Shown here: one piece after another, positions 31,359 to 62,257 of the stretch
Layout: every line of letters starts with the position of its first letter
How positions within the stretch are numbered: position 1 is the first letter of the stretch
Source of the DNA: an uncultured delta proteobacterium
GTDB lineage: Bacteria; Desulfobacterota; Binatia; UBA9968
Length of the DNA: 64,000 nt
Reading direction: 5' to 3'
NCBI GenBank assembly: GCA_963771465.1
Contig: CAVYTU010000014.1
Span: 32,001 to 96,000 of the forward strand
The notes under the pieces: generated by a model
Seen by the model: the letters and a program-made list of their open reading frames with translations, nothing else
Databases searched by the model: none
Told to the model about the DNA's origin: nothing
Translations under genes and position numbers: made by a program

Positions 31359-32462
31359 TTAGCCCAAGTGTTTCTTAAAACGTAGCGCGCTCAAAGTCAT
31401 GAACAGCGCGCCGAAGGCGGCGAGCACGACCGCTTCGTCCCACAGCGCGGCGATGCCCGCGCCGCGGAGAATAATGCCGCGGAGAATTTCCAAATAGTAA
31501 GTCGCCGGGATGAGAAAACTGAATACGTATATAATCATCGGCATGGACTCCCGCGGAAAAACAAATCCCGAGAGCAAAAACGACGGCAACATGGACATCA
31601 AGGACATCTGCATCGCCTCACCTTGATTCTTGGCGAAGGTCGAAATGACGATGCCGATGCCGAGCGCGGGTATCAAGAACAAAAGCGAAAGAAAGAGCAG
31701 CAAGGTCACCGAACCACTCACCGGGACTCGGAATAGAAAAACCATCAGCAACAACACCACAACGGTCTGAGCGAAACCGATCGCCGTGTAAGGCAAGAGC
31801 TTGCCGAGAATCAGTCCGCCTTTGGATACCGGCGTGACGAGTAGTTGCTCCAAGGTGCCGCGCTCGCGCTCGCGCACGATGGCGAAGGCAGTGAGAAAGA
31901 CCGTGACCAATTGGAGAATGATGCCGATCAAGCCCGGCACGAAAAAATTGACGCTCTCAAGGTTGGGATTGAACAACAGCCGTGGCCGGATATCGACTTT
32001 GAACTCGGCCGGAGAAATTCCCTCAATCGCCAACGATTTCATAAAACCTAATTGTTGGCTCGAATTCAACGCTTGCAGCGCGGTGGTCGATTCGGACCCA
32101 TCGATCACCACCTGTACCTGAGCCTGGCGGCCGTTGACGAGGTTGGCAGAATAGTCAGGTGGAATTTTGATGCCGACTTTGGCCCGGCCGCTGACGATGG
32201 CAGACTGAAGCTCACGATCGGAATGAACTGCGCCGATGATTTTGAAGTAGCGGGTGTTTTCAAATTCTTTGATTAGCTGGCGGCTCTCCGCGTCGCGATT
32301 GAGATCGAACACCACCGTATTGACGTATTTGACGTCGGTGTCGATGGCGTAGCCGAAAATCAACAGCTCGATGAGCGGAATCGCCATCACAAAGCGCGTC
32401 GCCGGATCGCGCTTGATGTGGATGATTTCCTTTTTGAGGATCGCCCAAAGACCGCGGAACAT
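31359..32462 (-). CDS. ABC-2 type exporter permease (YbhS/YbhR-like)
   Basis: IVRERERGTLEQLLVTP, LLSGFVFPRESMP. Confidence 0.9.
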   Translation of the reverse strand: MFRGLWAILKKEIIHIKRDPATRFVMAIPLIELLIFGYAIDTDVKYVNTVVFDLNRDAESRQLIKEFENTRYFKIIGAVHSDRELQSAIVSGRAKVGIKIPPDYSANLVNGRQAQVQVVIDGSESTTALQALNSSQQLGFMKSLAIEGISPAEFKVDIRPRLLFNPNLESVNFFVPGLIGIILQLVTVFLTAFAIVRERERGTLEQLLVTPVSKGGLILGKLLPYTAIGFAQTVVVLLLMVFLFRVPVSGSVTLLLFLSLLFLIPALGIGIVISTFAKNQGEAMQMSLMSMLPSFLLSGFVFPRESMPMIIYVFSFLIPATYYLEILRGIILRGAGIAALWDEAVVLAAFGALFMTLSALRFKKHLG

Positions 32463-46963: not shown

Positions 46964-47740
46964 TTACGCCGACGGCAGCCAACCGACTATACTGATTTGC
47001 CGCCCGGTTTCGCCACCCTGGCGCCGGTACGAGTAGAAATCTTTCGGCGCGCAGCTCGTGCATGGGCCGATCTCGTGGAGCTGTTTGCCTGGCACACCGG
47101 CGGCGCGGAGAATATCGCGATTGAGCCGGCGCAGATTGACGAATGACTTGCCATCTTTGACGGCAATGCTGGGAGTCGTCAGCTTGCCCCACTTTTTCAT
47201 CAGCGGTGCGGCAACATCGTCTTTGACTTCATAGCAGCACGCGCCGATCGACGGCCCGAGCGCCACTTCCAAATCCGCGGCTTCAATATTGTTTTGATCT
47301 TTGAATAGCCGCACGGTTTTCTCCGCAATCCCCGCCAACGTGCCGCGCCAACCGGCGTGCACCGCAGCCGCCAATCTTTGCTTCGGCGCAATGATTAACA
47401 GCGGCACACAGTCGGCCGTGAGAACTCCCAGGTAGACATCGTTCTCGCCGGTGATCATGCCGTCGGCCTCGCCCGCTTCTTTTAGCTGTTTGTCTTTGAT
47501 CTCAATAATATTATCGCCATGCACCTGGCGCATGGTGACAACCTTGCCGTCGTGTATGCCCACCGCCTGCTTCATGTCGCAAACGTTTTGGCTGACGATC
47601 TTCGGGTCGTCGCCGACCCGATAGGAGACATTGAGTCCGGAGTAAACGCCGACACTCTTGCCGCCGCGCCGGCCCATGAAGCCGTGCAGCAAACCCAAAT
47701 GCGTTTGCCACTGCGGAACCGTCAGGTGCGTGATTTCCAT
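46964..47740 (-). CDS. pgeF: Peptidoglycan editing factor PgeF/YfiH (laccase-domain) protein
   Basis: QVHGD, TADCVP, HAGWRG, GPSIGACCYEV, FYSYRR. Confidence 0.9.
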   Translation of the reverse strand: MEITHLTVPQWQTHLGLLHGFMGRRGGKSVGVYSGLNVSYRVGDDPKIVSQNVCDMKQAVGIHDGKVVTMRQVHGDNIIEIKDKQLKEAGEADGMITGENDVYLGVLTADCVPLLIIAPKQRLAAAVHAGWRGTLAGIAEKTVRLFKDQNNIEAADLEVALGPSIGACCYEVKDDVAAPLMKKWGKLTTPSIAVKDGKSFVNLRRLNRDILRAAGVPGKQLHEIGPCTSCAPKDFYSYRRQGGETGRQISIVGWLPSA

Positions 47741-47895
47741 TAGGCGGTATTATGTGGACTCCATCCGAGAGTTGCAAGGCGCAAACGCGCCCGGTCATCT
47801 CACGCTGACCATAGAAAACCGCAGAAACAATCAAGCAGATAGGCGTTCTTCGATCTTGCCGAAGCCCACCGAGGCGAGTAAATTGGCAACTAACA

Positions 47896-50800
47896 ATGGC
47901 CAACGGCAACTACACTGAGACGCTCCGACAGCCTGGCTTTCTCGCCTTTTTCTGGACCCAGTTCTTGGGTGCGTTCAACGATAATTTTTTGAAGATCGTC
48001 GTCTCGTTCGTCGCCTTGAATCTGGCCACCAGCGCGAGCGCGAACTACGTCGAGCTGATCGCGTTTCTGTTCATTCTTCCGTCGGCGCTATTTTCCGGTT
48101 ACGCCGGCCATCTCGCCGACGTCTACAGCAAGCGGACTATTTTAGTCACGGTGAAGCTGTGGGAAATCGCCATCATGGTTTTTGCGCTCACGGCGTTTTT
48201 CTTTGGTCAGATTCAACTCATGTTGGGTGCAGTGTTCTTGATGGGGCTGCACGCCGCATTCTTCAGTCCGGCCAAGTACGGCATCCTGCCGGAGATGCTG
48301 CCGGAAAAAGATTTGTCGCGCGGTAATGGACTTCTGGAAATGAGCACCTTCATGGCGATCATTTTGGGCACGTCGCTCGGCAGCGCGATTTTTTCCGTCT
48401 GGAAATATAACTTGCCGCTGATCGGCCTGGTGATGATCGCCATCGCGGTCTTGGGCTATTGGACCAGCTTGGGAATCTCCCATGTTCCACCATCAGGCGC
48501 GGCGAAACTATTGCGGCTCAATCCGTTCAGCGAGATCGCCGACGGTCTGCGCCGTTTGCGTTCCGAGCGTCCGCTTTGGCTCACCGTGATCGGCATCTCT
48601 TATTTTTGGTTTCTCGGCGCGCTGGTCCAAATCAACATACTTTTCTTCGGCAAAGAACTGCTCCACCTGGACGAGTTTCACATCGGCCTGCTCGGCACCT
48701 TCCTCGCCATCGGCATCGGCATCGGCAGTCTCGCCGCCGGCCGGCTGTCGGGCGATCATATCGAATTGGGCCTGGTGCCGCTCGGATCAGTTGCCATGGG
48801 TCTCTGTCTAGCCTTGGTCGCATGGTCGGCACCGTCTTATCCGGCCACGGCACTCGCGCTCGTGCTTCTTGGTTTTTCCGCTGGACTCTTCGCTGTGCCC
48901 TTGAATGCGTTGTTGCAGCAGCGCAGCGGCAAGGAAGAAAAAGGCCAGCTGATCGCGACCAATAATTTCATGAACACCATCGGCATCGCACTCGCAGCGG
49001 CAACCCACTGGCTGCTTAAATCGCCGTTACAATTGTCGCCGGATACGATCATTTTGCTGATTGGCTTAATCACCCTCGGCGGCACTGTGATCATTCTCTA
49101 TCTGCTACCCGACTATTTCGTGCGCTTTGTCCTCTGGCTTATTACCCACACCGTCTATCGCATTCGAGTGGTCGGCGACGACAAGATCCCGCTTCACGGC
49201 CCCGCGCTTTTGATATCGAATCACGTCTCCTTCGTCGACGCGATCTTGATCGGCGCCTCGCTACCGCGCTTCGTCCGTTTCATGCTGCACCGGGAGTACT
49301 ATGATCGCAAATCGCTCAATTGGTTTTTCCGCCTGATGCGCTCGATCCCGGTTTCGGCCACCAATCGGCGCGATATCATCGAGTCGATCAAGCGCGCGCG
49401 CAACGAATTGGAAAAAGGCCACGCCGTTTGCATCTTCGCCGAGGGCGCGATCAGCCGCACCGGTCGCTTGCTGCCACTCAAACGGGGCTTTGAAAGGATC
49501 GTCGATGGCACCAACGTGCCGATCGTGCCGGTGCACTTGGACCAGCTATGGGGCAGCATATTTAGTTTCAAGAACGGCCGCTTCTTTTGGAAATGGCCGG
49601 GCAAGGCGCCCTATCCCGTGACGGTTTCATTTGGCGCGGCCTTGCCGCCGACCGCCACCGTGAATCAAGTGCGCAACGCAATTTTAGAATTGGAAAGCGA
49701 AGCGGTGGAATACCGGCGCAGCGCCAGCGATCTGTTGCACACCAAATTCGTCGCAATGGCCAAGCGCCGTTGGCGCTCGTTCTGCATGGCCGATACCACG
49801 GGCACGGAACTGACCTATGGAAAAACTCTCATCGCCAGCCTCTTGTTCGCGCGCTGGGTGCGGACCCATTGCCCCAATCAGGCCATGGTCGGCGTGATGC
49901 TTCCGGCCACGGTCGGCGGCTCGCTGGTCAATATCGCAATCTTGTTCGCCGGCAAAGTGCCGGTCAATTTGAATTTCACTTCCGGCGCCGAGGCGATGAC
50001 CGCGGCCATCGCCCAATGCAAGATCAAGACGATCATCACTTCCGAGGCTTTCTTAAGTAAAGCCAATCTCGAAACCATGGAAGGCATGGTTTTCGTCGAA
50101 CAGATTCGCAGCTCGTTTACCGAAGCTCAGAAATTGACGACCGCCGCGAAAGCCTTTCTGATGCCGGCGCTCTGGTTGAACCGCCGCGCCGTCAAACAGC
50201 AACGTCCCCACGATCTGGCGACGATCATTTTTTCCAGCGGCAGCACGGGAACGCCTAAAGGCGTCATGCTGTCACACCACAACATTATTTCGAACATTGA
50301 AGGGATACGCCAGGTGATCCACTTCACGCCGAGCGATCGGATCATGGGCGTATTGCCGCTGTTTCATTCCTTTGGCTTTACCGCCACGCTCTGGTTGCCG
50401 CTGCTCGCCGGCTTTGGCGCCGTTTATCATCCCAATCCGACGGACGCCAAGACCATCGGCGAGACCGTGCAGAAATATCGAGCGACTTTGCTGATCAGCA
50501 CGCCGACTTTTTTTGTCAGCTATTGGCGCCGCTGCAGCAAGGAAGAATTTGCCAGCTTGCGCTATGTCATCGCCGGCGCGGAAAAACTGCGCGAGCAAAT
50601 CGCCAAAGGCTTTCAAGAAAAATTTGGCCTGACCATTCTCGAAGGCTACGGCTGTACCGAACTGGCGCCGGTGGTCGCGGTCAACACGCCCGATGTTACC
50701 GACGGCAAGGAAAAACAGGTCGGCCACAAGCCCGGCACCGTCGGCCACCCGATTCCCGGGGTCGCCGCCAAAGTCATCGATCCCGACACCGGACAGCCGC

Positions 50801-51288
50801 TGGGGCCTGGCGAAGAAGGACTCTTATTGATCAAAGGCCCCAATGTCATGCTCGGCTATTTGAACCAGGGAAGTCTCACCGACCAGGTCATGCGGCGCGG
50901 CTGGTACGTCACCGGAGATATCGTGGCGATCGATGAAGACGGCTTTATCAAGATCACCGATCGCCTATCACGCTTCAGCAAGATCGGCGGCGAAATGGTA
51001 CCGCACATGAAAGTCGAAGAGGCGATCAACGAGGTGCTTGGCAGCGCCGTATCCGTGGTCACCGCCCTGCCCGACCCGCAGCGCGGCGAGAAACTCGTCG
51101 CCTTTTACACCCAGAACGGTTTCAGTCGAGACGTCCTGTGGAGCAAGCTCAATCAAACCGAGCTGCCCAAACTATGGATCCCCAAACGCGAAAATATCCA
51201 CGCCATCGACGCCATCCCGATCCTCGGCTCGGGCAAGGCCGACCTCAAAAAAGTCAAAGCGATGGCGCTGGAACGCGCGGCGAGCTAA
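47896..51288 (+). CDS. aas: Trifunctional LplT-like MFS + acyltransferase + acyl-ACP synthetase
   Basis: QFLGAFNDN MFS start; NHVSFVD and FAEG PlsC motifs; FSSGSTGTPKG, EGYGCTE, TGD adenylation motifs. Confidence 0.9.
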   Translation: MANGNYTETLRQPGFLAFFWTQFLGAFNDNFLKIVVSFVALNLATSASANYVELIAFLFILPSALFSGYAGHLADVYSKRTILVTVKLWEIAIMVFALTAFFFGQIQLMLGAVFLMGLHAAFFSPAKYGILPEMLPEKDLSRGNGLLEMSTFMAIILGTSLGSAIFSVWKYNLPLIGLVMIAIAVLGYWTSLGISHVPPSGAAKLLRLNPFSEIADGLRRLRSERPLWLTVIGISYFWFLGALVQINILFFGKELLHLDEFHIGLLGTFLAIGIGIGSLAAGRLSGDHIELGLVPLGSVAMGLCLALVAWSAPSYPATALALVLLGFSAGLFAVPLNALLQQRSGKEEKGQLIATNNFMNTIGIALAAATHWLLKSPLQLSPDTIILLIGLITLGGTVIILYLLPDYFVRFVLWLITHTVYRIRVVGDDKIPLHGPALLISNHVSFVDAILIGASLPRFVRFMLHREYYDRKSLNWFFRLMRSIPVSATNRRDIIESIKRARNELEKGHAVCIFAEGAISRTGRLLPLKRGFERIVDGTNVPIVPVHLDQLWGSIFSFKNGRFFWKWPGKAPYPVTVSFGAALPPTATVNQVRNAILELESEAVEYRRSASDLLHTKFVAMAKRRWRSFCMADTTGTELTYGKTLIASLLFARWVRTHCPNQAMVGVMLPATVGGSLVNIAILFAGKVPVNLNFTSGAEAMTAAIAQCKIKTIITSEAFLSKANLETMEGMVFVEQIRSSFTEAQKLTTAAKAFLMPALWLNRRAVKQQRPHDLATIIFSSGSTGTPKGVMLSHHNIISNIEGIRQVIHFTPSDRIMGVLPLFHSFGFTATLWLPLLAGFGAVYHPNPTDAKTIGETVQKYRATLLISTPTFFVSYWRRCSKEEFASLRYVIAGAEKLREQIAKGFQEKFGLTILEGYGCTELAPVVAVNTPDVTDGKEKQVGHKPGTVGHPIPGVAAKVIDPDTGQPLGPGEEGLLLIKGPNVMLGYLNQGSLTDQVMRRGWYVTGDIVAIDEDGFIKITDRLSRFSKIGGEMVPHMKVEEAINEVLGSAVSVVTALPDPQRGEKLVAFYTQNGFSRDVLWSKLNQTELPKLWIPKRENIHAIDAIPILGSGKADLKKVKAMALERAAS

Positions 51289-51500
51289 CTCCGATTAAGC
51301 TGTGTTGATCGAGGTGTGACCCTGGAGGAACGAAGGCAGCGGCGCGAATGTTTCATTTTGTGCTCCAAGCTCGGCACGATGCTTGACCTTTGCGCTGCTG
51401 ATCTCATGAGCAACTCGCCGCGCGTGCATCTTCAAGGCACACTGCTTTGCCTTCGTTCCGGAAGGGTTGCGCCTCGATCGAAGTTTCACACAAATACGGG
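51289..51500 (+). mobile_element. MITE-like structured element, copy 1
   Basis: Flanked by CTAA/CTAA; internal ~32-bp inverted repeat gatcgaggtgtgaccct..ggaacgaaggca / tgccttcgttcc..agggttgcgcctcgatc. Confidence 0.75.
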
Positions 51501-51559
51501 CTAACACCGACAATGAATTTCATGCCAAGCGACCACCGCGGAGCGTAGGAGCTAAGCCA

Positions 51560-53420
51560 ATGATATCGACAGCGGAAATCCGCGCCGTATATGAACACGC
51601 AACGACCGAGTTTATCGAGGCGCGTGAGTTCCAAGTGCTGGTTTCCGGCCGAGCGTCGGGAGATTTTGTCCGTCAGTTTTTACTCAACGTTTTTCGCACG
51701 CATTATCTGTCGGCCCATATCGTCGCGCTTTGCTTCGCGGCGCTGCCGTCCAATGCGGCGGCGCTGTTGAAAGAAAATCTCCTCGAAGAAATGGGCCACT
51801 CCGCAGACGAGCCACCCCATTCGGCGTTGTTGCTCAAGCTCGCTGAAGGTATCGGCTGTTCGCCGCAGGAAATTGACAAACTCATCGACGACGCGCGCCG
51901 CCGGGTTGCGGTCTTTTGTGCCACTCGAGTGCCGTTGGCCACCCTGCGTGAAATCTGTCTCGCCGTGCTGCTGGAAACGCTCTCCTTTGAGTTCATGCTG
52001 TCGCGCTGCTCGGGACAAATCGCCACGGCTTTACGCGAGCACTACGGCGTCGCCAAAGCGGCGCTCAAGTGGTTTGAGCTTCACTCCGAAGTGGACATTC
52101 GCCACGCCGAGGAAGGGCTGACGGTGATCGAAGACTACCTCGCGTTTCATCAGATCGGTGATCCGACCTTCGACCTCATCCAGCGTGCGGCTCTTGGCAA
52201 AGTCTTCAGCAAGCATTATTTCCCGGCCGAGGAGCGCGCTTTTGCTTTGCCCGTCGAAAGCAAGAACGCGTCACGCATCGAGGCGATCACCATCTATAAA
52301 CTGAAAATTCCATTTCATCAGGCCTTTCATCACGCCACCCAGCGCCGCGAGGAAAGCGACGCAGTGATCGTGCGGATCAAAGACGCCAGCGGGCAGATCG
52401 GTTACGGCGAAGCGCTGCCGCGTCCCTACGTCACCGGCGAAACCACCGCATCGATGATCGCTCATCTGCGCGGACGGCTGGCGCCGCAGATTTTCGCTCC
52501 CACATGGGTCGCGGGTTGGGCGACCTTCGAGCTTCTCGACTCCTGTCGCGCCGAGTGGACGCGAAGTCATGACAGCGCGGTCAGCGCTTGGAACGCGGCG
52601 TTTTGCGCCGTCGAATTGGCATTGCTCGACTGGAGTTTGAAAAGTCTCAGCCACTTCGCTGTCCGCATTCCTGCCACCGGCACGAAACCAAGTCATCTAC
52701 AGCGGCGTCATTTCTTCCGACAATCCAGCGGAAGCAGCGGCGTTGGCCAAGCGAATGGTCAAATTTGGTTTGCGTCAACTCAAGATCAAAGTCGGCACAT
52801 CGGACGACTACGACCGGGTCGCCGCGGTGCGCCAAGCCGTAGGGCCGGAAGTCGCATTGCGCGCCGATGCCAATGGCGCCTGGAGCGCGGCGCAAGCGGT
52901 CGAGGAATTGCACCGGCTCAAGCCTTTTAACTTACAAGTGATCGAACAACCGGTGCCGCCAGGCGATCTCGCTGGAATGAGAAAAGTCCGAGCGGAAACC
53001 GGCCTGCCGGTGATGGCCGACGAGTCGCTCGTGACCATCGAGCAAGCGCGCCATCTGATCGACGCGCGCGCCTGCGACTATTTCAACATACGCCTGTCCA
53101 AGTGCGGCGGCGTCACCGGCAGCCTGGCGATCGCCAAACTCGCCGCGCAAGCCGGCATCAAAATCCAGGTCGGCGCACAGGTCGGCGAGACGGCGATCCT
53201 TTCCGCCGCCGGCAGGACCTTTGCCGCTCATTTGCCGACGCTCGCGTTCGCCGAGGGTTCCTTCGGCACCTGGTTATTAAGCGAAGACATCGCCTTCGAA
53301 GACGTGAGCTTCGGTTACGCCGGCGTCGCGCCACTGCTCGCAAGCCGCGGCCTCAGCGTGACGGTCAAAGACGAAACCTTGGAACGGCTTGCCGTCGAAA
53401 AGATCGAGCTCAGTCGCTAG
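51560..53420 (+). CDS. Heme-oxygenase-like diiron (CADD/PqqC/TenA-like) domain fused to an enolase-superfamily (MLE/epimerase-like) domain; +1 frameshift at ~52641-52653
   Basis: ENLLEEMG..PPH, FEF, WFELHSEVDIRH; GYGEALPRPYVTGET; after the shift YSGVIS, KIKVG, DAN, EQP, ADES, NIRLSKCGG, GAQVGET. Confidence 0.8.
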
Positions 53421-53673
53421 CCCGGACTATTCATGCCACGAGGAAACCTGACGACACTCTGTTATCGAGGTGCGACCCCAAAGAACCAAAACGTCGGACG
53501 AGGGCAGGGGCGCGAATGTTTCATTTTGTGCTCGGCACTCGGTACGATGTTTAACCTTTTCCCTGCTGATCTCATTAGCAAGTTGTCCCGCGTGCATCTT
53601 CAAGGCACAGCTGCTTTGCCTTCGTTCCGGAGGGGTTGCACCTCGATCGTAGTTTTGCCGCGAATAATTCGCG
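53421..53673 (+). mobile_element. MITE-like structured element, copy 2
   Basis: ctag[cccggactattca...gcgaataattcgcg]ctag; same core as copy 1. Confidence 0.8.
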
Positions 53674-53683
53674 CTAGGCGGTT

Positions 53684-55372
53684 ATGACGTTGGCCCACCG
53701 CGCCGCGCTCTTGCTGAGCGGCCTTCAATGGAATCGCTGGGAGCGCCAAACACGCGATCCGGCTGCCGCGCAAAAACAGCTACTGCGAGAAATCGTTCAG
53801 CGCAATCAATCCACCGCCTTCGGCAGAGATCACGGCTTTAGCTCGATCAAAAGCGTCAAAGATTTCCGCCGCCAGGTGGCGATCGGCGATTATGAAAGTT
53901 TTCGGCCTTATATCGAGCGCGCCAAGCAAGGTGAAAAAGCAGTGCTGACCAGCGAGCCGATACTGATGTTCACCATGACCAGCGGCAGCACCGGCGAGCC
54001 GAAGTTGATCCCCGTAACCGAATCGACGCGTGCGACCCATACCAGACTGACGCGACTTTGGTACAGCCGGGCGTTCCAAGATCATCCGGGGTCGGGTGCG
54101 GGAAAAGTTTTCGGGCTGGTGGGCCGAATGGTCGAAGGGCACACCGCCGGTGGTATCCCCTACGGTGCGGCGTCGGGCCTGATTTATCAATCCAGCCCGG
54201 CTTGGATCAAACGCACGCACGCGCTGCCTTATGAAATCGCCGAGATCAAAGATTTCCAAACCAAGTATTACGCCGCGATGCGGGTCGCCATCGAACAGGA
54301 TGTCACCTTCCTGGGCACGCCCAATCCGAGCACGATACTTCGGCTCGTCGAAACTGCCGATCATTTTCGCGCGGAGATTATCAAAGACATACACGACGGC
54401 AGCTTGTCGAATCGTATTGAATTGGCGGGGGATGTTCGACTGGCGTTGGCGAAATATTTATCGCCGAACCGACAGCGTGCGCAACAATTGGAACAATCGC
54501 TGGCGGGGACCGGACGGCTTCGTCCCATCGACTACTGGCCCCATTTGCGGCTCATCGGTTGCTGGAAAGGTGGCAGCGTCGGCGTTCGTCTCAAAGAATT
54601 GGTCGCTTGGTTCGGCAACCAAGTGCCGGCACGTGACCTCGGCTACATGGCCAGTGAGGCGCAGATGTCGCTGCCGGTGAGCGACAGCGGTTCGGCTGGT
54701 ATTTTAGCGGTCGATGGGAATTTTTATGAGTTCATCCCAGAGTCGGAAATCGCCAGCGCCCATGCCATAGCGCTTGGCTGCGACGAGCTTGAATCAGGCG
54801 GCGTGTATTATCCGATCCTCACCACCGCCGCCGGTCTCTATCGCTACGACATCAACGACGTGATCCGTGTCACCGGCTTTCACGGCAAAACTCCGTTGGT
54901 GGAATTCCTCCGCAAAGGTCGCGATGTCACCAACATCACCGGCGAAAAATTGCACGTCAATCACGTGATCCAGGCGATGGAACAGGCTCAACGCGCCACG
55001 GGCGCCGTGGTGCGGCACTTTCGCGCTTTCGCGGACATGGAAAATTCCCGCTATGCCTTCATGGTTGAGTGCGACGGCGCTAAGGCCAACGACGCAACAC
55101 TCAGCCATTTACTCGCCGAACTGGACGCGTGCCTGTTCGAGATCAATGTCGAATATGCCGATAAACGAAAATCGGCGCGACTCCAAGCGCCCGTACTCTG
55201 CGTCATGAAACACGGCTGGTATGAGCGCAAGGCCGCTGTTGCGCTCCACGCTGGCGCGCGCGACGTCCAGTTCAAAGCGCAGCTGTTGAGCGTCATACCG
55301 GAAGATCCGAGCGAGATCATGGCGCTGTTACAAAATTCGAACTCTGCTGATATCTCCAAAAGACACGATTGA
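53684..55372 (+). CDS. GH3-family (auxin-responsive GH3-like) acyl-adenylate/amide ligase
   Basis: TSGSTGEPKLIP, GYMASE, FYEFIP, GLYRYDINDVI, GEKL. Confidence 0.9.
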   Translation: MTLAHRAALLLSGLQWNRWERQTRDPAAAQKQLLREIVQRNQSTAFGRDHGFSSIKSVKDFRRQVAIGDYESFRPYIERAKQGEKAVLTSEPILMFTMTSGSTGEPKLIPVTESTRATHTRLTRLWYSRAFQDHPGSGAGKVFGLVGRMVEGHTAGGIPYGAASGLIYQSSPAWIKRTHALPYEIAEIKDFQTKYYAAMRVAIEQDVTFLGTPNPSTILRLVETADHFRAEIIKDIHDGSLSNRIELAGDVRLALAKYLSPNRQRAQQLEQSLAGTGRLRPIDYWPHLRLIGCWKGGSVGVRLKELVAWFGNQVPARDLGYMASEAQMSLPVSDSGSAGILAVDGNFYEFIPESEIASAHAIALGCDELESGGVYYPILTTAAGLYRYDINDVIRVTGFHGKTPLVEFLRKGRDVTNITGEKLHVNHVIQAMEQAQRATGAVVRHFRAFADMENSRYAFMVECDGAKANDATLSHLLAELDACLFEINVEYADKRKSARLQAPVLCVMKHGWYERKAAVALHAGARDVQFKAQLLSVIPEDPSEIMALLQNSNSADISKRHD

Positions 55373-55797
55373 ATCCGTCCATGCACGGTCCCGTCCTCGC
55401 CCTGCTGACACTCCTCTTCGCGCTCCGTGTTTTGGGTCAAGCACTCGTCGCGTTTGTCGGCGTTGCTTGGTTGCCAGTCATGGAACAATGGTTTTCCGGA
55501 CTGATTCCCTACCCAACACTTCTCATGATCCAACTCCTCATGCTCATTCTCATGGTGAAAATCACCGGCGAAATCTGGCGCGGCGTAGGCACATTCGCCA
55601 TCCGACGGCCGCACTGGTCACAGTTTTTAATAAGATTTAGCGCCGTCTACGCCGGCGCCATGGTCTTGCGCTATGTTTTGACGATGATTTTACATCCGGA
55701 GAAGCGCTGGCTCGGGGATGTCATCCCAATCATTTTTCACTTCGTGCTGGCAGGGTTCATATTCGTGCTCGGCCACTATCATCGACGCGCACGCTGA
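55369..55797 (+). CDS. Hypothetical 4-TM membrane protein
   Basis: Four hydrophobic segments; WFSGLIPYP and IPIIFH motifs; overlaps the GH3 stop. Confidence 0.7.
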   Translation: MNPSMHGPVLALLTLLFALRVLGQALVAFVGVAWLPVMEQWFSGLIPYPTLLMIQLLMLILMVKITGEIWRGVGTFAIRRPHWSQFLIRFSAVYAGAMVLRYVLTMILHPEKRWLGDVIPIIFHFVLAGFIFVLGHYHRRAR

Positions 55798-55848
55798 TTG
55801 CATGGGCATACATCGCGTGTTAGAAACTTGCTAGTTTTGGAGGATGAA

Positions 55849-56829
55849 ATGGATTTCCAGCAACTGGCGGACAAAGCACTCAACGGCATACTTCCCGAGC
55901 GGGATGAATTGAAAGCAATTCTCAACGCGCCGGACGAACAACTGCCGGAGATATTGAGCGCGGCCTTTAGAGTGCGCCATCACTATTACGGCAAGCGCGT
56001 GCAAATTCATGTCTTGCAGAATGCCAAGAGCGGCTTGTGTCCGGAGGACTGCCACTATTGCTCGCAATCCTCGGTCTCCGAAGCGCCCGTCGAGAAATAT
56101 CCTTTCATGTCCAAAGAGAAATTGGTGGAAAACGCCAGACAGGCCAAAGCCGCCGGCGCCGTGCGCTTTTGCATCGTCAACAGCGGCCGCGGCCCGACCC
56201 ATAAAGAAATCGACGAGATCGCCGACGCCGTGCGCGAGATCAGATCACAAACCGGGATGAATGTTTGCTGCTCGCTCGGCTTGATGAACGAAGACAAGAC
56301 GCAGAAACTAGCGGCCGCCGGCGTCGGCAGGGTCAATCACAATTTGAACACCAGCCGGGAGCGCCACGCCGAGATCGTCACCACTCACACCTACGACGAC
56401 CGCTTGGCGACGATTGAAAGCGTCAAGAGCGCCGGAATCGGCACTTGTTCTGGTGGGATTATCGGCATGGGCGAGAGCGACGACGACATTATCAACCTGG
56501 CGATGACGTTGCGCGCCATGGATATCGACTCGATCCCAGTGAATTTTCTGAACTCGATCCCCAAGACGCCGTTCGAACAAAAGCGCGAACTCACCCCGCA
56601 GCGCTGTTTGAAAACCCTCTGCCTGTTTCGTTTCGTCAATCCAGGCAAAGAAATCCGCGTCGCCGGCGGCCGTGAAGTCAATCTGCGATCGCTGCAGCCG
56701 CTGAGCCTATATCCGGCGAACTCAATGTTCGTCAACGGATATCTCACGACGCCCGGCCAAGACGCTAGCGACGCCCATCAAATGATCCGCGACTTGGGCT
56801 TCGAGCTCGATCAGCCGGCGGCGATCTAG
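55849..56829 (+). CDS. bioB: Biotin synthase
   Basis: CPEDCHYCSQS radical-SAM motif, NHNLNT, CSGGIIGMGE, PVNFL, IRVAGGRE, YLTT. Confidence 0.95.
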   Translation: MDFQQLADKALNGILPERDELKAILNAPDEQLPEILSAAFRVRHHYYGKRVQIHVLQNAKSGLCPEDCHYCSQSSVSEAPVEKYPFMSKEKLVENARQAKAAGAVRFCIVNSGRGPTHKEIDEIADAVREIRSQTGMNVCCSLGLMNEDKTQKLAAAGVGRVNHNLNTSRERHAEIVTTHTYDDRLATIESVKSAGIGTCSGGIIGMGESDDDIINLAMTLRAMDIDSIPVNFLNSIPKTPFEQKRELTPQRCLKTLCLFRFVNPGKEIRVAGGREVNLRSLQPLSLYPANSMFVNGYLTTPGQDASDAHQMIRDLGFELDQPAAI

Positions 56830-56887
56830 GCACAGGTGTGACCGAGAATTAAAAGCGCCCTTTAAACGCAACTCCAAGGAGACTACC

Positions 56888-57397
56888 GTGCGATATGTTA
56901 TCTTTCTCGTCACACTTCTAACAACCGTCAGCGCTGCATCGGCGGCATCGTTCGATGCGCCGAAGCGGAAATCCGGTTTGTGGGAAATCAAAATGTCGAA
57001 TGCCGCTGCCCAGGGCACAACCATGCAGCAGTGCATCGACCAAAGCACCGACGACTTGATGAAGAATAATATGGCGGGAATGGAGAAGCCATCTTGCTCG
57101 AAAAACGAGATGCGCCGCGATGGCGGCAAGATCGTCTCCGAATCCGTCTGTAAGGTCGGCGCCAGCACTGCTACGACCCGCGCGGTTTTTACCGGCCAAT
57201 TCGACACGGCATACAAGGCGGATATCAAGAGCACGTATGAACCGCCGCTTCACGGCATGAAAGAGTCGACATCCGTACTTGACGCGAAATGGCTAGGAGC
57301 GTGTAAGCCGGGACAAAAAGCCGGCGACATTTCGATGCCCGGCATGCCGAATATGAACATGAACGACATGATGAAGAAGCTGCCGAAGCAGCCCTGA
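56888..57397 (+). CDS. DUF3617-like exported protein
   Basis: Signal peptide; RKSGLWEI, QQCID, AKWLGACK. Confidence 0.75.
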   Translation: MRYVIFLVTLLTTVSAASAASFDAPKRKSGLWEIKMSNAAAQGTTMQQCIDQSTDDLMKNNMAGMEKPSCSKNEMRRDGGKIVSESVCKVGASTATTRAVFTGQFDTAYKADIKSTYEPPLHGMKESTSVLDAKWLGACKPGQKAGDISMPGMPNMNMNDMMKKLPKQP

Positions 57398-57642
57398 AGT
57401 TGTCGCGCTAACGTTGGATGGGTCAAGCAAGACGTACTCATCGAATCCTCCTTTGCTCGGATCGCCACGAGGACGTAATCATGGTGCGGGCCGCGCTCTC
57501 AGTTGCAAACTCGCTGCGAAATGCCTAATCTCCTGTCGGATCGCGCCGACATAAATCTGCAGAGTTTTCGAGGGAAAAACTATCTAGTAAGCAATAATAT
57601 AGTTTGGGAGAACCTAAACCTTCATTAACGGAGGAGAACCTT

Positions 57643-58905
57643 ATGATCTCACGAACTTCGTCCCAGATTCGCTTGCTGTTAGCCGGATTAGTTACTTCGC
57701 TAGGATTAACGTTACCACCCATTATTCAATCACAAGAAAAGCCGCCGCCCAACGTCCAGCCCACGCCAACGACAGTTCCTGGTCGCCCCGATATTCCCAA
57801 CGCTGAAATAGCCAAGACGCTGCGCGGCGTGCCGTCACCGCCATTGCCGACACCAGCGGAGAAACTACAGATCGGCCAGCTGAAAATGGCCAAGGGTTTC
57901 AAGCTCGAAGTTTATGCCAGCGGCATCGCCAACGCGCGCTCGCTGCGCATCGGCGACAAAGGCACCGTCTTCGTCAGCAACCGCCAACTCGATAAGGTCT
58001 ACGCGATCGCCGAGCGCAACGGCAAGCGCGAGACCAAAGTGATCGCGTCCGGCTTGGACCGGCCCAACGGGCTCGCCTTTCATAGCGGCACGCTGTACAT
58101 CGGCGAAGGCACCAAAATTTCCAAGCTGGAAAAGATCGAAGATAGTCTCGACAACCCGGGCAAACCCACCGTCATTTACAGCGAACTACCGAATCAACAA
58201 TCGCACGGGTGGAGGTATATCGCCATCGGACCGGACAACAAGCTCTACATAAACGTCGGCGCGCCGTGCAACATCTGCGAACCGCCGGAGACCAACGCAC
58301 AGATTCGCCGCATCAATCTTGATGGCAGCGGCGCGGAAGTGTTTGCTCGCGGCGTGCGCAATTCGGTGGGCTTCGACTGGCATCCGATCACCAAGGATTT
58401 CTATTTCACGGATAATGGCCGTGACTGGCTGTCGGAAGACCTGCCGGAGGATGAGCTCAACCGTGTCACCAAGGTTGGCCAGCATTTTGGATTTCCCTAT
58501 TGTCACCAGGGCAACTTCACGGACCGCGACGTTGGCTGGGGCCGCTCCTGCACCGAGTTCACGCCGCCGGTCGCCTTGATCGGCCCCCACAGCGCCGCGC
58601 TCGGCATGCGCTTCTACACCGGCAACATGTTTCCACGCGAATACCGTAACGCCATCTTGATCGCCCGTCACGGCTCGTGGAATCGCACCCAAAAAATCGG
58701 CGGCGACATCATCGTGGCCAAATTGAATGTAAACGGCACGGTAAAATCGGTTGAGCCGTTCATCACCGGCTTTTTGCACAACAACGAATACTGGGGCCGG
58801 CCGGTCGACGTCCATGTCATGAAAGATGGCTCTATGTTGATCTCGGACGACTATGCCGGCGCGGTTTACCGCGTCACCTACAACCCGCAGGTCGCCAGCC
58901 GTTAA
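57643..58905 (+). CDS. Glucose/sorbosone dehydrogenase family beta-propeller protein
   Basis: GAPCNIC, RGVRNSVGFDW, DNGRD, FGFPYC, HGSWNR, GRPVDV. Confidence 0.9.
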   Translation: MISRTSSQIRLLLAGLVTSLGLTLPPIIQSQEKPPPNVQPTPTTVPGRPDIPNAEIAKTLRGVPSPPLPTPAEKLQIGQLKMAKGFKLEVYASGIANARSLRIGDKGTVFVSNRQLDKVYAIAERNGKRETKVIASGLDRPNGLAFHSGTLYIGEGTKISKLEKIEDSLDNPGKPTVIYSELPNQQSHGWRYIAIGPDNKLYINVGAPCNICEPPETNAQIRRINLDGSGAEVFARGVRNSVGFDWHPITKDFYFTDNGRDWLSEDLPEDELNRVTKVGQHFGFPYCHQGNFTDRDVGWGRSCTEFTPPVALIGPHSAALGMRFYTGNMFPREYRNAILIARHGSWNRTQKIGGDIIVAKLNVNGTVKSVEPFITGFLHNNEYWGRPVDVHVMKDGSMLISDDYAGAVYRVTYNPQVASR

Positions 58906-62017: not shown

Positions 62018-62257
62018 CCGGATGCATTCAGGCTACGGGGAAACCTGACGACACGGGTTGATCGAGGTGTGACCCTGGAGGAACGAAGGCACCGGCGCGA
62101 ATGTTTCATTTTGAGCTCAGCGCTGGGCACGATCTTTGACCCTTTCGCCGCTGATCCATTCGCAAGTCGCCCGCATGCAATCTTCAAGGCACAACTGCTT
62201 TGCCTTCGTTCCGGAAGGGTTGCACCTCGATCAACGTTTTACCGCGCATAATCCGGG
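62018..62257 (+). mobile_element. MITE-like structured element, copy 3
   Basis: ccggatgcattca...gcgcataatccggg followed by ctag (stop of the neighbouring gene); same core. Confidence 0.75.

Follow-up and report, generated by a model that had tools for sequence, protein, structure and literature searches.

An accessory HDO-enolase, GH3 and membrane protein cassette between aas and bioB in uncultured Binatia, and its possible role in the synthesis of modified N-acyl amino acids

We analysed a stretch of 64,000 nucleotides (termed the window; positions 32,001 to 96,000 of contig CAVYTU010000014.1) from the genome of an uncultured member of the Binatia (6.9 Mb in 19 contigs, here called G000; the window is G000:C14:32001-96000). 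Between the genes aas and bioB this window contains three genes that code for a fusion of a heme-oxygenase-like dimetal oxygenase (HDO) with an enzyme of the enolase superfamily (HDO-enolase fusion), a GH3 ligase and a membrane protein with four transmembrane segments (4-TM protein), altogether four enzyme or protein modules. Comparison with related loci showed that this core cassette is an evolutionary unit and that it is accessory; its catalytic residues are, as judged from alignments, intact. The gene bioB is a syntenic bystander that is not tied to the cassette, and aas is its usual neighbour and a possible partner. We propose, with about even confidence, that the cassette encodes an accessory pathway to an oxidised and possibly epimerised N-acyl amino acid, and we consider a lipid product likelier than a soluble conjugate.

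A first-pass annotation, made from the sequence of the window, had described five co-oriented genes interrupted by two insertions of miniature inverted-repeat transposable elements (MITE), with the GH3 gene overlapping the membrane protein gene. This layout was confirmed: all five genes are located on the plus strand, each of the two long spacers contains one copy of a ~190-nt element, and the overlap is present if the membrane protein gene starts at the TTG at 55369. The features are, in window positions:

47896-51288, plus strand: aas, 1130 amino acids; Pfam MFS_1, Acyltransferase and AMP-binding; NF006386 1400.3 bits against a cut-off of 1221
51300-51490, no strand: MITE-like repeat, copy 1, in the spacer between aas and the HDO-enolase gene; inverted ends 51307-51338 and 51448-51479
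51560-53420, plus strand: HDO-enolase fusion; PF14518 62.8 bits (HDO, approximately residues 1-230), PF13378 177.6 bits (enolase of the MLE subgroup); frameshifted in the assembly
53460-53655, no strand: MITE-like repeat, copy 2, in the spacer between the enolase part and GH3; 86-93% identical to copy 1; genome match C14:85498-85655
53684-55372, plus strand: GH3-family ATP-dependent acyl-acid amido synthetase; PF03321, PF23571, PF23572
55369 or 55381 to 55797, plus strand: open reading frame (ORF) of the 4-TM membrane protein; no Pfam or NCBIfam match
55849 (likelier start; alternative 55798) to 56829, plus strand: bioB (biotin synthase); TIGR00433 399.2 bits against a cut-off of 225

The cassette as an accessory unit

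The fusion yielded strong matches (E ≤1e-100) in 12 of the 24 genomes sampled from the genus, and fragments of it were found in three more. The GH3 gene is present in 21 of 31 genus genomes. All five genes occur in the order of the window at nine of the 13 genus loci that were fetched, and also in G044 and G045. The unpublished genome G005 is counted in the genus tallies for the fusion, for GH3 and for a FeeM-aminotransferase protein described below. Two genomes, G024 and G006, have pgeF next to an aas-bioB pair without the cassette, with only 134-240 nt separating aas from bioB. Joint loss of the cassette genes is seen in G019 and G015. In G019 the fusion is broken into at least four pieces and GH3 into at least five, while aas (1130 amino acids) and bioB can each be aligned without a break; the G015 locus (L022) has undergone a deletion by which a fragment of the HDO is now connected to the final 250 residues of GH3. 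The join at L022 is in frame, as are similar joins in the proteins P0012 and P0195, and the enolase domain has apparently been removed by deletions in these cases.

The gene order was also determined at metagenome loci, using as denominator for each feature the loci with room for it. This set consists of the best 80 loci, all 60-100% identical, which are kin and not independent observations; it does not extend to distant stand-alone HDOs. The enolase part follows the HDO part at 66 of 68 loci, GH3 is the next gene after the fusion at 43 of 44, and the membrane protein gene is next after GH3 at 24 of 31. Of the flanking genes, aas is located directly upstream of the fusion at 55 of 63 loci, and bioB follows the cassette at 20 of 25. 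One locus (L117) has a gene for a sigma-54 activator upstream and genes for a CocE/NonD hydrolase and then aas downstream. No HDO homologue was found in a plasmid collection.

Outside the genus the cassette is rare. When 401 genomes of the phylum were sampled, an HDO at E 1e-15 or better turned up in G000 and G309 only. Among 121 sampled genomes of the class, this type of GH3 occurs in three, the membrane protein in six, aas in 31 and bioB in 94 (one row of the bioB count comes from the unpublished genome G513). G309, a 97% complete genome from another family, encodes on one strand aas, the membrane protein, an HDO of 238 amino acids that stands alone, a separate enolase and GH3, with identities to the window proteins of 40% (aas), 52% (membrane protein), 34% (HDO), 52% (enolase) and 47% (GH3). 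The membrane protein gene thus lies between aas and the HDO gene, a rearranged order compared to the window. GH3, aas and the membrane protein were each found in only one of the 14 sampled genomes of this family, in every case G309, and the genes were therefore probably acquired together.

The HDO family itself is small: among 1.84 billion representatives it accounts for 105 clusters (50% identity). It includes stand-alone forms of ~230 amino acids. A second clade of HDO-enolase fusions shares 38-47% identity with the first (38% in the HDO part), and one of its source names is Methylomirabilales. A search of genome contigs with the GH3 sequence returned 21 loci, all from close Binatia. A metagenomic protein of 572 amino acids (P0174) combines an HDO of the same family (29% identity) with an enoyl-CoA hydratase (crotonase) domain; this fusion hints that some family members act on substrates derived from acyl thioesters. 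The first-pass annotation had proposed to ask whether HDO, aas and bioB are retained around GH3 and enolase homologues. HDO, enolase, GH3 and the membrane protein do remain together across two families, with aas as usual companion; bioB is not a constant member.

The proteins of the cassette

In the assembly as given, a +1 frameshift near 52648 divides the predicted HDO-enolase fusion between two reading frames, 51560-~52650 and ~52650-53420; in five relatives the fusion is a single open frame of 620-623 amino acids. Shifting the window sequence by one frame from ~52650 recovers the conserved stretch "...FLPPARNQV(I/V)YSGV". Four public sequencing runs (X1, X3, X5 and X15) were compared with 51490-56900, of which X3, X5 and X15 have no cover at 52648. 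A contig of run X1 (448 nt, 52276-52724) has one base fewer at 52648 and no other differences, which restores the frame; X1 is possibly derived from the sample of the window itself. Frameshifts were also seen in several relatives assembled in few contigs, even in aas (G020, G045). Because of the X1 contig and these further frameshifts, we read the break as probably an assembly error; a very recent real mutation is a conceivable alternative. A programmed frameshift at 52648 was rejected, since the otherwise identical contig simply lacks the base. At the intergenic position 56864, between bioB and a DUF3617 gene, contigs of X1 (DNA) and X15 (an RNA library) likewise have one base fewer. With two such sites, 52648 and 56864, the assembly seems to contain single-base indel errors.

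The HDO part scores 62.8 bits (cut-off 28.9) with PF14518, the heme-oxygenase-like family of iron-containing redox enzymes, and its score, helical fold and six ligands place it in this family. The metal ligands E77, H87, E144, H175, D179 and H182 correspond to the ligand positions of CADD and are invariant in 28 fusions of both clades. The model of the domain has a mean predicted local distance difference test (pLDDT) score of 95.5, and Foldseek matched it to CADD (template modelling (TM) score 0.63-0.71) and HrmI (0.70), and also to FlcD, PqqC, RohS and UndA. Identity to any solved member is only 12-18%. With a wider HDO profile CADD is the closest solved structure (E 2e-23); a profile of 11 close HDOs retrieved no solved structure at E 1e-8. 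In CADD, Tyr27 is reported as the residue sacrificed in p-aminobenzoate synthesis, with Lys152 as its neighbour (PMC9522330). The family consensus and the window protein both have Phe at the position of Tyr27, and the residue equivalent to Lys152 is hydrophobic. TIGR04305, the model for CADD-type p-aminobenzoate synthases, reaches 32.2 bits against a cut-off of 200. An assignment of the HDO part as p-aminobenzoate synthase was therefore rejected.

In the enolase part, K409/K411, D437, E463, D488 and K515 (numbering of the G008 protein) are invariant in the 28 fusions of both clades. The KxK motif (strand 2), the D/E/D metal ligands and the second lysine (strand 6) align with those of the best solved relatives, 3jva, 2p88 and 1jpm (E 3e-41 to 2e-35), which places the domain in the MLE subgroup. 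The alignment with 2p88, which we take to be an N-succinyl-Arg/Lys racemase, is full-length; those with the dipeptide epimerases 3jva and 1jpm end before the last barrel strands. The NCBIfam equivalogs score far below their cut-offs (L-Ala-D/L-Glu epimerase 85.2/500, N-acetyl-D-Glu racemase 101.5/400, OSBS 93.2/288), these values being obtained with the C-terminal fragment only. The residues would permit abstraction of the alpha-proton from a carboxylate, and are compatible with epimerisation and elimination alike. A model of the whole fusion (pLDDT 85.3, predicted TM score (pTM) 0.68) has a low-confidence linker at 229-231 and no confident domain interface or fixed arrangement of the domains; as a prediction it would be neutral with respect to channelling. 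A literature search, which did not extend to supplementary files, found no paper linking HDO, the enolase superfamily and GH3, and no HDO-enolase fusion turned up.

The GH3 protein contains all three domains of the family, PF03321 (246.9 bits), PF23571 (72 bits) and PF23572 (55.8 bits), where all three cut-offs are 23.6. The three nucleotide-binding motifs are recognisable as TSGSTGEPK, YMASE and GLYRYDIND in a comparison by eye, without structural superposition, with motifs I-III of JAR1, which are SSGTSxGxxK, YGSSE and GLYRYRLGD (PMC12493201). JAR1 is also the best solved relative (135 bits), and the solved relatives include benzoate-glutamate ligases. The model for the bacterial ligase OlsH (NF052613) gives 115.5 bits against a cut-off of 620, with the best stretch confined to residues 22-223, and the protein thus falls outside this model. 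OlsH makes N-acyl ornithine (PMC12493201); it is described in a 2026 review as the only characterised bacterial GH3, whose homologues may use other amino acids (PMC12971839).

Two further GH3 loci were observed in the genus. A second GH3 paralogue of G008 (L029:2970-9591), 29% identical, follows two genes for B12-binding radical SAM proteins and two ORFs without a family; it is a different, uncharacterised GH3 system. G005 alone contains, at L028, a second pair of GH3 and enolase genes without HDO, and no conclusion depends on it.

Ten homologues of the 4-TM protein share 30 invariant columns. The protein matches no Pfam or NCBIfam family, and in a protein atlas only unnamed clusters were found. 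At L056 of G025, the homologous membrane protein gene has an internal TAG and an adjacent oxidase gene is fragmented.

The flanking genes and spacers

The protein encoded by aas is matched by NF006386 from residue 8 to 1128, i.e., over its full length, and is of the LplT-Aas type. The established function of this family is the re-acylation of lysophospholipids. The gene is single-copy in G000 and was seen in three arrangements relative to the cassette. Other genes for amide formation were found at the same slot. In G046, a fusion protein of 550 amino acids (L026:1628-3277) is encoded exactly between aas and bioB and combines a FeeM N-acyl amino acid synthase domain (PF21926, 41.1 bits, cut-off 27) with a PhnW-like class-V aminotransferase. 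This fusion is unique in the genus: only one of the 31 genomes matches the whole query, and the others match the aminotransferase part alone. In G529, which belongs to another genus of the window's family, genes for a Rieske/VanA-type oxygenase, a GH3 paralogue (31% identical) and an FG-GAP protein are located downstream of aas (L146:5907-10075). The repeated presence of amide-forming genes at the aas slot is suggestive of a lipid substrate and of a cooperation with Aas.

The assignment of bioB is clear, with PF04055 (radical SAM) and PF06968 (BATS) present in addition to the TIGR00433 match, but the first-pass proposal that bioB is a member of the pathway was not supported. In G024 and G006, and also in G027 of another family, bioB comes next to aas with no cassette in between. 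Cassette, aas and bioB are on three separate contigs in G529. In G008, the closest relative of the window, bioB is absent from the 3.4 kb after the membrane protein gene, and it is likewise missing after the cassette at five of the 25 metagenome loci long enough to show it. Near pgeF, and without aas, bioB is found in G337 and family f3; further away it stands alone. In G025, a 62-residue aas fragment and a membrane protein gene with an internal stop precede bioB; this stretch is a decayed remnant.

A route from long-chain acyl groups to a pimelate-like precursor, which had been suggested because of bioB, fared no better. The cassette-less genomes G006, G007 and G046 retain bioF above cut-off, and in the cassette-bearing, 97% complete G309 neither bioB nor bioF was found. 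G000 has bioF-bioA-bioD on C15 (bioF-bioA 1080554-1082997; bioD was scanned at this locus only) and a further adjacent bioF-bioA pair at C13:494139-496579. This second pair may not be real, the contamination estimate of the assembly being 6.29%. Of the genes bioC, bioH, bioW and bioI that the first-pass annotation had proposed to check, the first three gave no match above cut-off in G000: the best scores are 66.7 bits against 185 for BioC and 59.7 against 207 for BioH, and BioW has no match, in a search that did not include BioZ, BioI or other esterases. Neither of the known pimelate routes looked for (BioC/BioH and BioW) thus accounts for the pimelate of G000. The distribution data remove a tempting but unsupported link between the cassette and the origin of pimelate in bacteria without BioC.

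The spacers of the window locus are unusually long at two junctions, 271 nt between aas and the fusion and 263 nt between the fusion and GH3. In relatives the same junctions measure ~50 nt and 8 nt, and both MITE insertions are therefore particular to the lineage of the window. The ~190-nt element has inverted ends of ~30 nt; of 42 genome matches 35 are copies of at least 150 nt, with 73-88% identity. A third copy is located in the window at 62057-62242. A scan of 47000-58000 with Rfam gave no family match, including at the MITE-like elements. The stop codon of GH3 (55370-55372) overlaps the TTG start of the 4-TM gene at 55369, the alternative start being the ATG at 55381; the likely start of bioB, ATG 55849, is preceded by GGAGG. 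A promoter and terminator scan found three promoter-like sites where 4.5 are expected. Contigs from the RNA library X15 cover 51626-52059, parts of GH3, and 55268-55889 (the end of GH3, the membrane protein gene and the start of bioB). Such contigs cannot establish a single transcript and the library may contain DNA, so they were given no weight.

A proposed pathway, its alternatives and known systems

In the proposed pathway GH3 would activate a carboxylic acid (most likely a fatty acid) by adenylation and couple it to an amino acid through the amino group of the latter, yielding an N-acyl amino acid with a free alpha-carboxylate. The enolase domain would bind this carboxylate via Mg2+ and take the alpha-proton, resulting in epimerisation to the D form or in beta-elimination. 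The fused HDO domain may use O2 for a hydroxylation, an N-oxygenation or another oxidation of the same molecule, and the 4-TM protein might anchor the reactions or their product at the membrane. The weakest step is the part of Aas, which may provide or recycle acyl groups. We favour this pathway because the GH3 product, with its free alpha-carboxylate, is the type of substrate used by MLE epimerases and racemases; that the enolase domain is fused to a dimetal domain which activates O2 speaks for successive reactions of a single molecule. By analogy, the precedent of OlsH, the FeeM domain at the aas-bioB slot of G046 and the Rieske and GH3 genes downstream of aas in G529 would point to a lipid substrate. 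The acyl-amide or aminolipid route of the first-pass annotation is thus partly supported: gene context backs it for HDO, enolase, GH3 and the membrane protein, with aas as usual neighbour, but not for bioB.

Several observations weigh against this proposal. The catalytic lysines of the enolase domain would fit a racemase, a dehydratase or a cycloisomerase alike, GH3 is as close to the plant enzyme JAR1 (135 bits) as to OlsH (115.5 bits), and no OlsI-like hydrolase is encoded among the five genes. The evidence for expression of the cassette genes is weak, coming from one RNA library that possibly holds DNA. The cassette can also be found away from aas: in G529 the fusion and GH3 are on C11 beside a cupin gene, with aas on C39 and bioB on C48, and at five metagenome loci the genes upstream of the cassette are those for an amidohydrolase, an ABC-2 ATPase, an ABC-2 permease and a 131-residue ORF instead of aas. 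Conversely, aas is single-copy and is retained where the cassette is lost, as in the case of a housekeeping gene, and therefore fits housekeeping re-acylation of lysophospholipids. Relatives of the 4-TM protein gene adjoin genes for a DUF6962 protein and an FAD-linked (ALO-type) oxidase without GH3 (G541 L148:8603-11252, G025 L056:9892-11828).

The same architecture could serve a non-lipid product, which we regard as rather unlikely. GH3 would then conjugate a small or aromatic acid that the HDO makes or modifies, and the enolase would epimerise the amino-acid part, giving a soluble signal, a siderophore-like molecule or a detoxification conjugate. Plant GH3.12 conjugates 4-substituted benzoates, benzoate-glutamate ligases are among the solved GH3 relatives, and the closest solved HDO in the profile search (E 2e-23) is the p-aminobenzoate synthase CADD. 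One type of context has the ABC-2 exporter and the amidohydrolase upstream, and in G529 the cassette lies beside the cupin gene, away from aas. Yet the replacement of the CADD residues Tyr27 by Phe and Lys152 by a hydrophobic residue and the low TIGR04305 score (32 bits versus 200) speak against a CADD-like reaction, and the conserved membrane protein, the frequent aas neighbour and the FeeM-type synthase at the same slot point to lipids. A role in salvage or catabolism appears improbable. Here the enolase would racemise an imported D-amino acid or N-acyl (D-)amino acid, which would also be oxidised, with GH3 providing the N-acylation for the racemase, similar to the N-succinyl amino acid racemase pathways. 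This would agree with the full-length alignment to 2p88, with the patchy and dispensable nature of the cassette (GH3 in 21 of 31 genus genomes) and with frequent hydrolase neighbours (CocE/NonD in L117, amidohydrolase in L140). However, no deacylase is constant in the cassette, the 4-TM protein has no transporter family signature, and an ATP-spending ligase together with an O2-dependent dimetal enzyme is more typical of biosynthesis.

It is very improbable that the genes share no function and are unrelated neighbours kept by recent common descent in one genus. Most supporting loci are indeed close kin (58-75% identity) and the whole-fusion model (pTM 0.68) lacks a fixed domain arrangement, but the fusion of HDO with enolase is found in two clades only 38-47% identical to each other, the separate genes of G309 still adjoin GH3 and the membrane protein in a rearranged order, and the cassette genes are lost jointly in G019 and G015. 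The oxidation of long-chain acyl groups to a pimelate-like precursor that feeds BioF/A/D/B is barely tenable and largely refuted by distribution. The 20 of 25 metagenome loci with bioB after the cassette, and the presence of bioF, bioA and bioD in G000 with BioC, BioH and BioW all below cut-offs or unmatched, would be in line with it. Against it stand the bioF genes kept in the cassette-less G006, G007 and G046, the failure to find either bioF or bioB in G309, the decay of the cassette in G019 and G015 while bioB is intact, the aas-bioB pairs without a cassette and the location of bioF/A/D on other contigs.

A bolder variant of the N-acyl amino acid pathway, which we consider quite unlikely, would be a fourth, O2-dependent bacterial route to aminolipids using a basic amino acid. 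In this variant GH3 would make N-acyl-ornithine or N-acyl-lysine, and the enolase domain would invert the alpha-carbon to the D form. The dimetal domain would N-oxygenate the free amine of the side chain or hydroxylate the acyl chain, and the acyltransferase and acyl-ACP (acyl carrier protein) synthetase domains of LplT-Aas would add a second acyl chain. The slot downstream of aas might then be a docking site for interchangeable lipoamino-acid cassettes (HDO-enolase/GH3, FeeM-aminotransferase, Rieske/GH3). Weak pointers by analogy to a basic amino acid are the use of ornithine by OlsH, the structural neighbour HrmI and the alignment with 2p88. HrmI is a lysine N-oxygenase that oxidises N6 of lysine.

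For many bacterial N-acyl amino acids the producing enzymes have yet to be found, as stated in the review cited above (PMC12971839). If the main proposal of an oxidised, possibly epimerised N-acyl amino acid is true, the cassette would be a defined enzyme trio for oxidised and possibly D-configured lipoamino acids in widespread uncultured soil Binatia, and would suggest a second role for the lipid-repair enzyme LplT-Aas.

Among known systems, OlsH/OlsI of Singulisphaera acidiphila (PMC12493201) resembles the cassette in having a bacterial GH3 with the three nucleotide-binding motifs, in an operon-like setting with lipid genes; the window enzyme, too, would form an N-acyl bond from an ATP-activated acid and an amino acid. 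In contrast to that system, the window cluster contains no OlsI alpha/beta-hydrolase or OlsG methyltransferase (OlsI was looked for in the cluster, not in the rest of the genome), and the HDO-enolase fusion and the 4-TM protein are partners absent from the OlsH pathway. With the MLE epimerases and racemases (3jva, 1jpm, 2p88) the enolase domain shares the KxK motif, the three metal ligands and the second catalytic lysine; it differs from them by its fusion to an oxygenase and by equivalog scores that are all far below the cut-offs. The HDO domain has the seven-helix fold of CADD, HrmI, RohS, FlcD and UndA and the six carboxylate and histidine ligands at the CADD positions, but it is only 12-18% identical to solved members, does not keep the equivalents of Tyr27 and Lys152, and is fused to an enolase. 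FeeM-type synthases (PF21926) are not homologous to GH3 and use acyl-ACP rather than ATP, but the product class proposed here is the same, and in G046 one of them occupies the same slot between aas and bioB.

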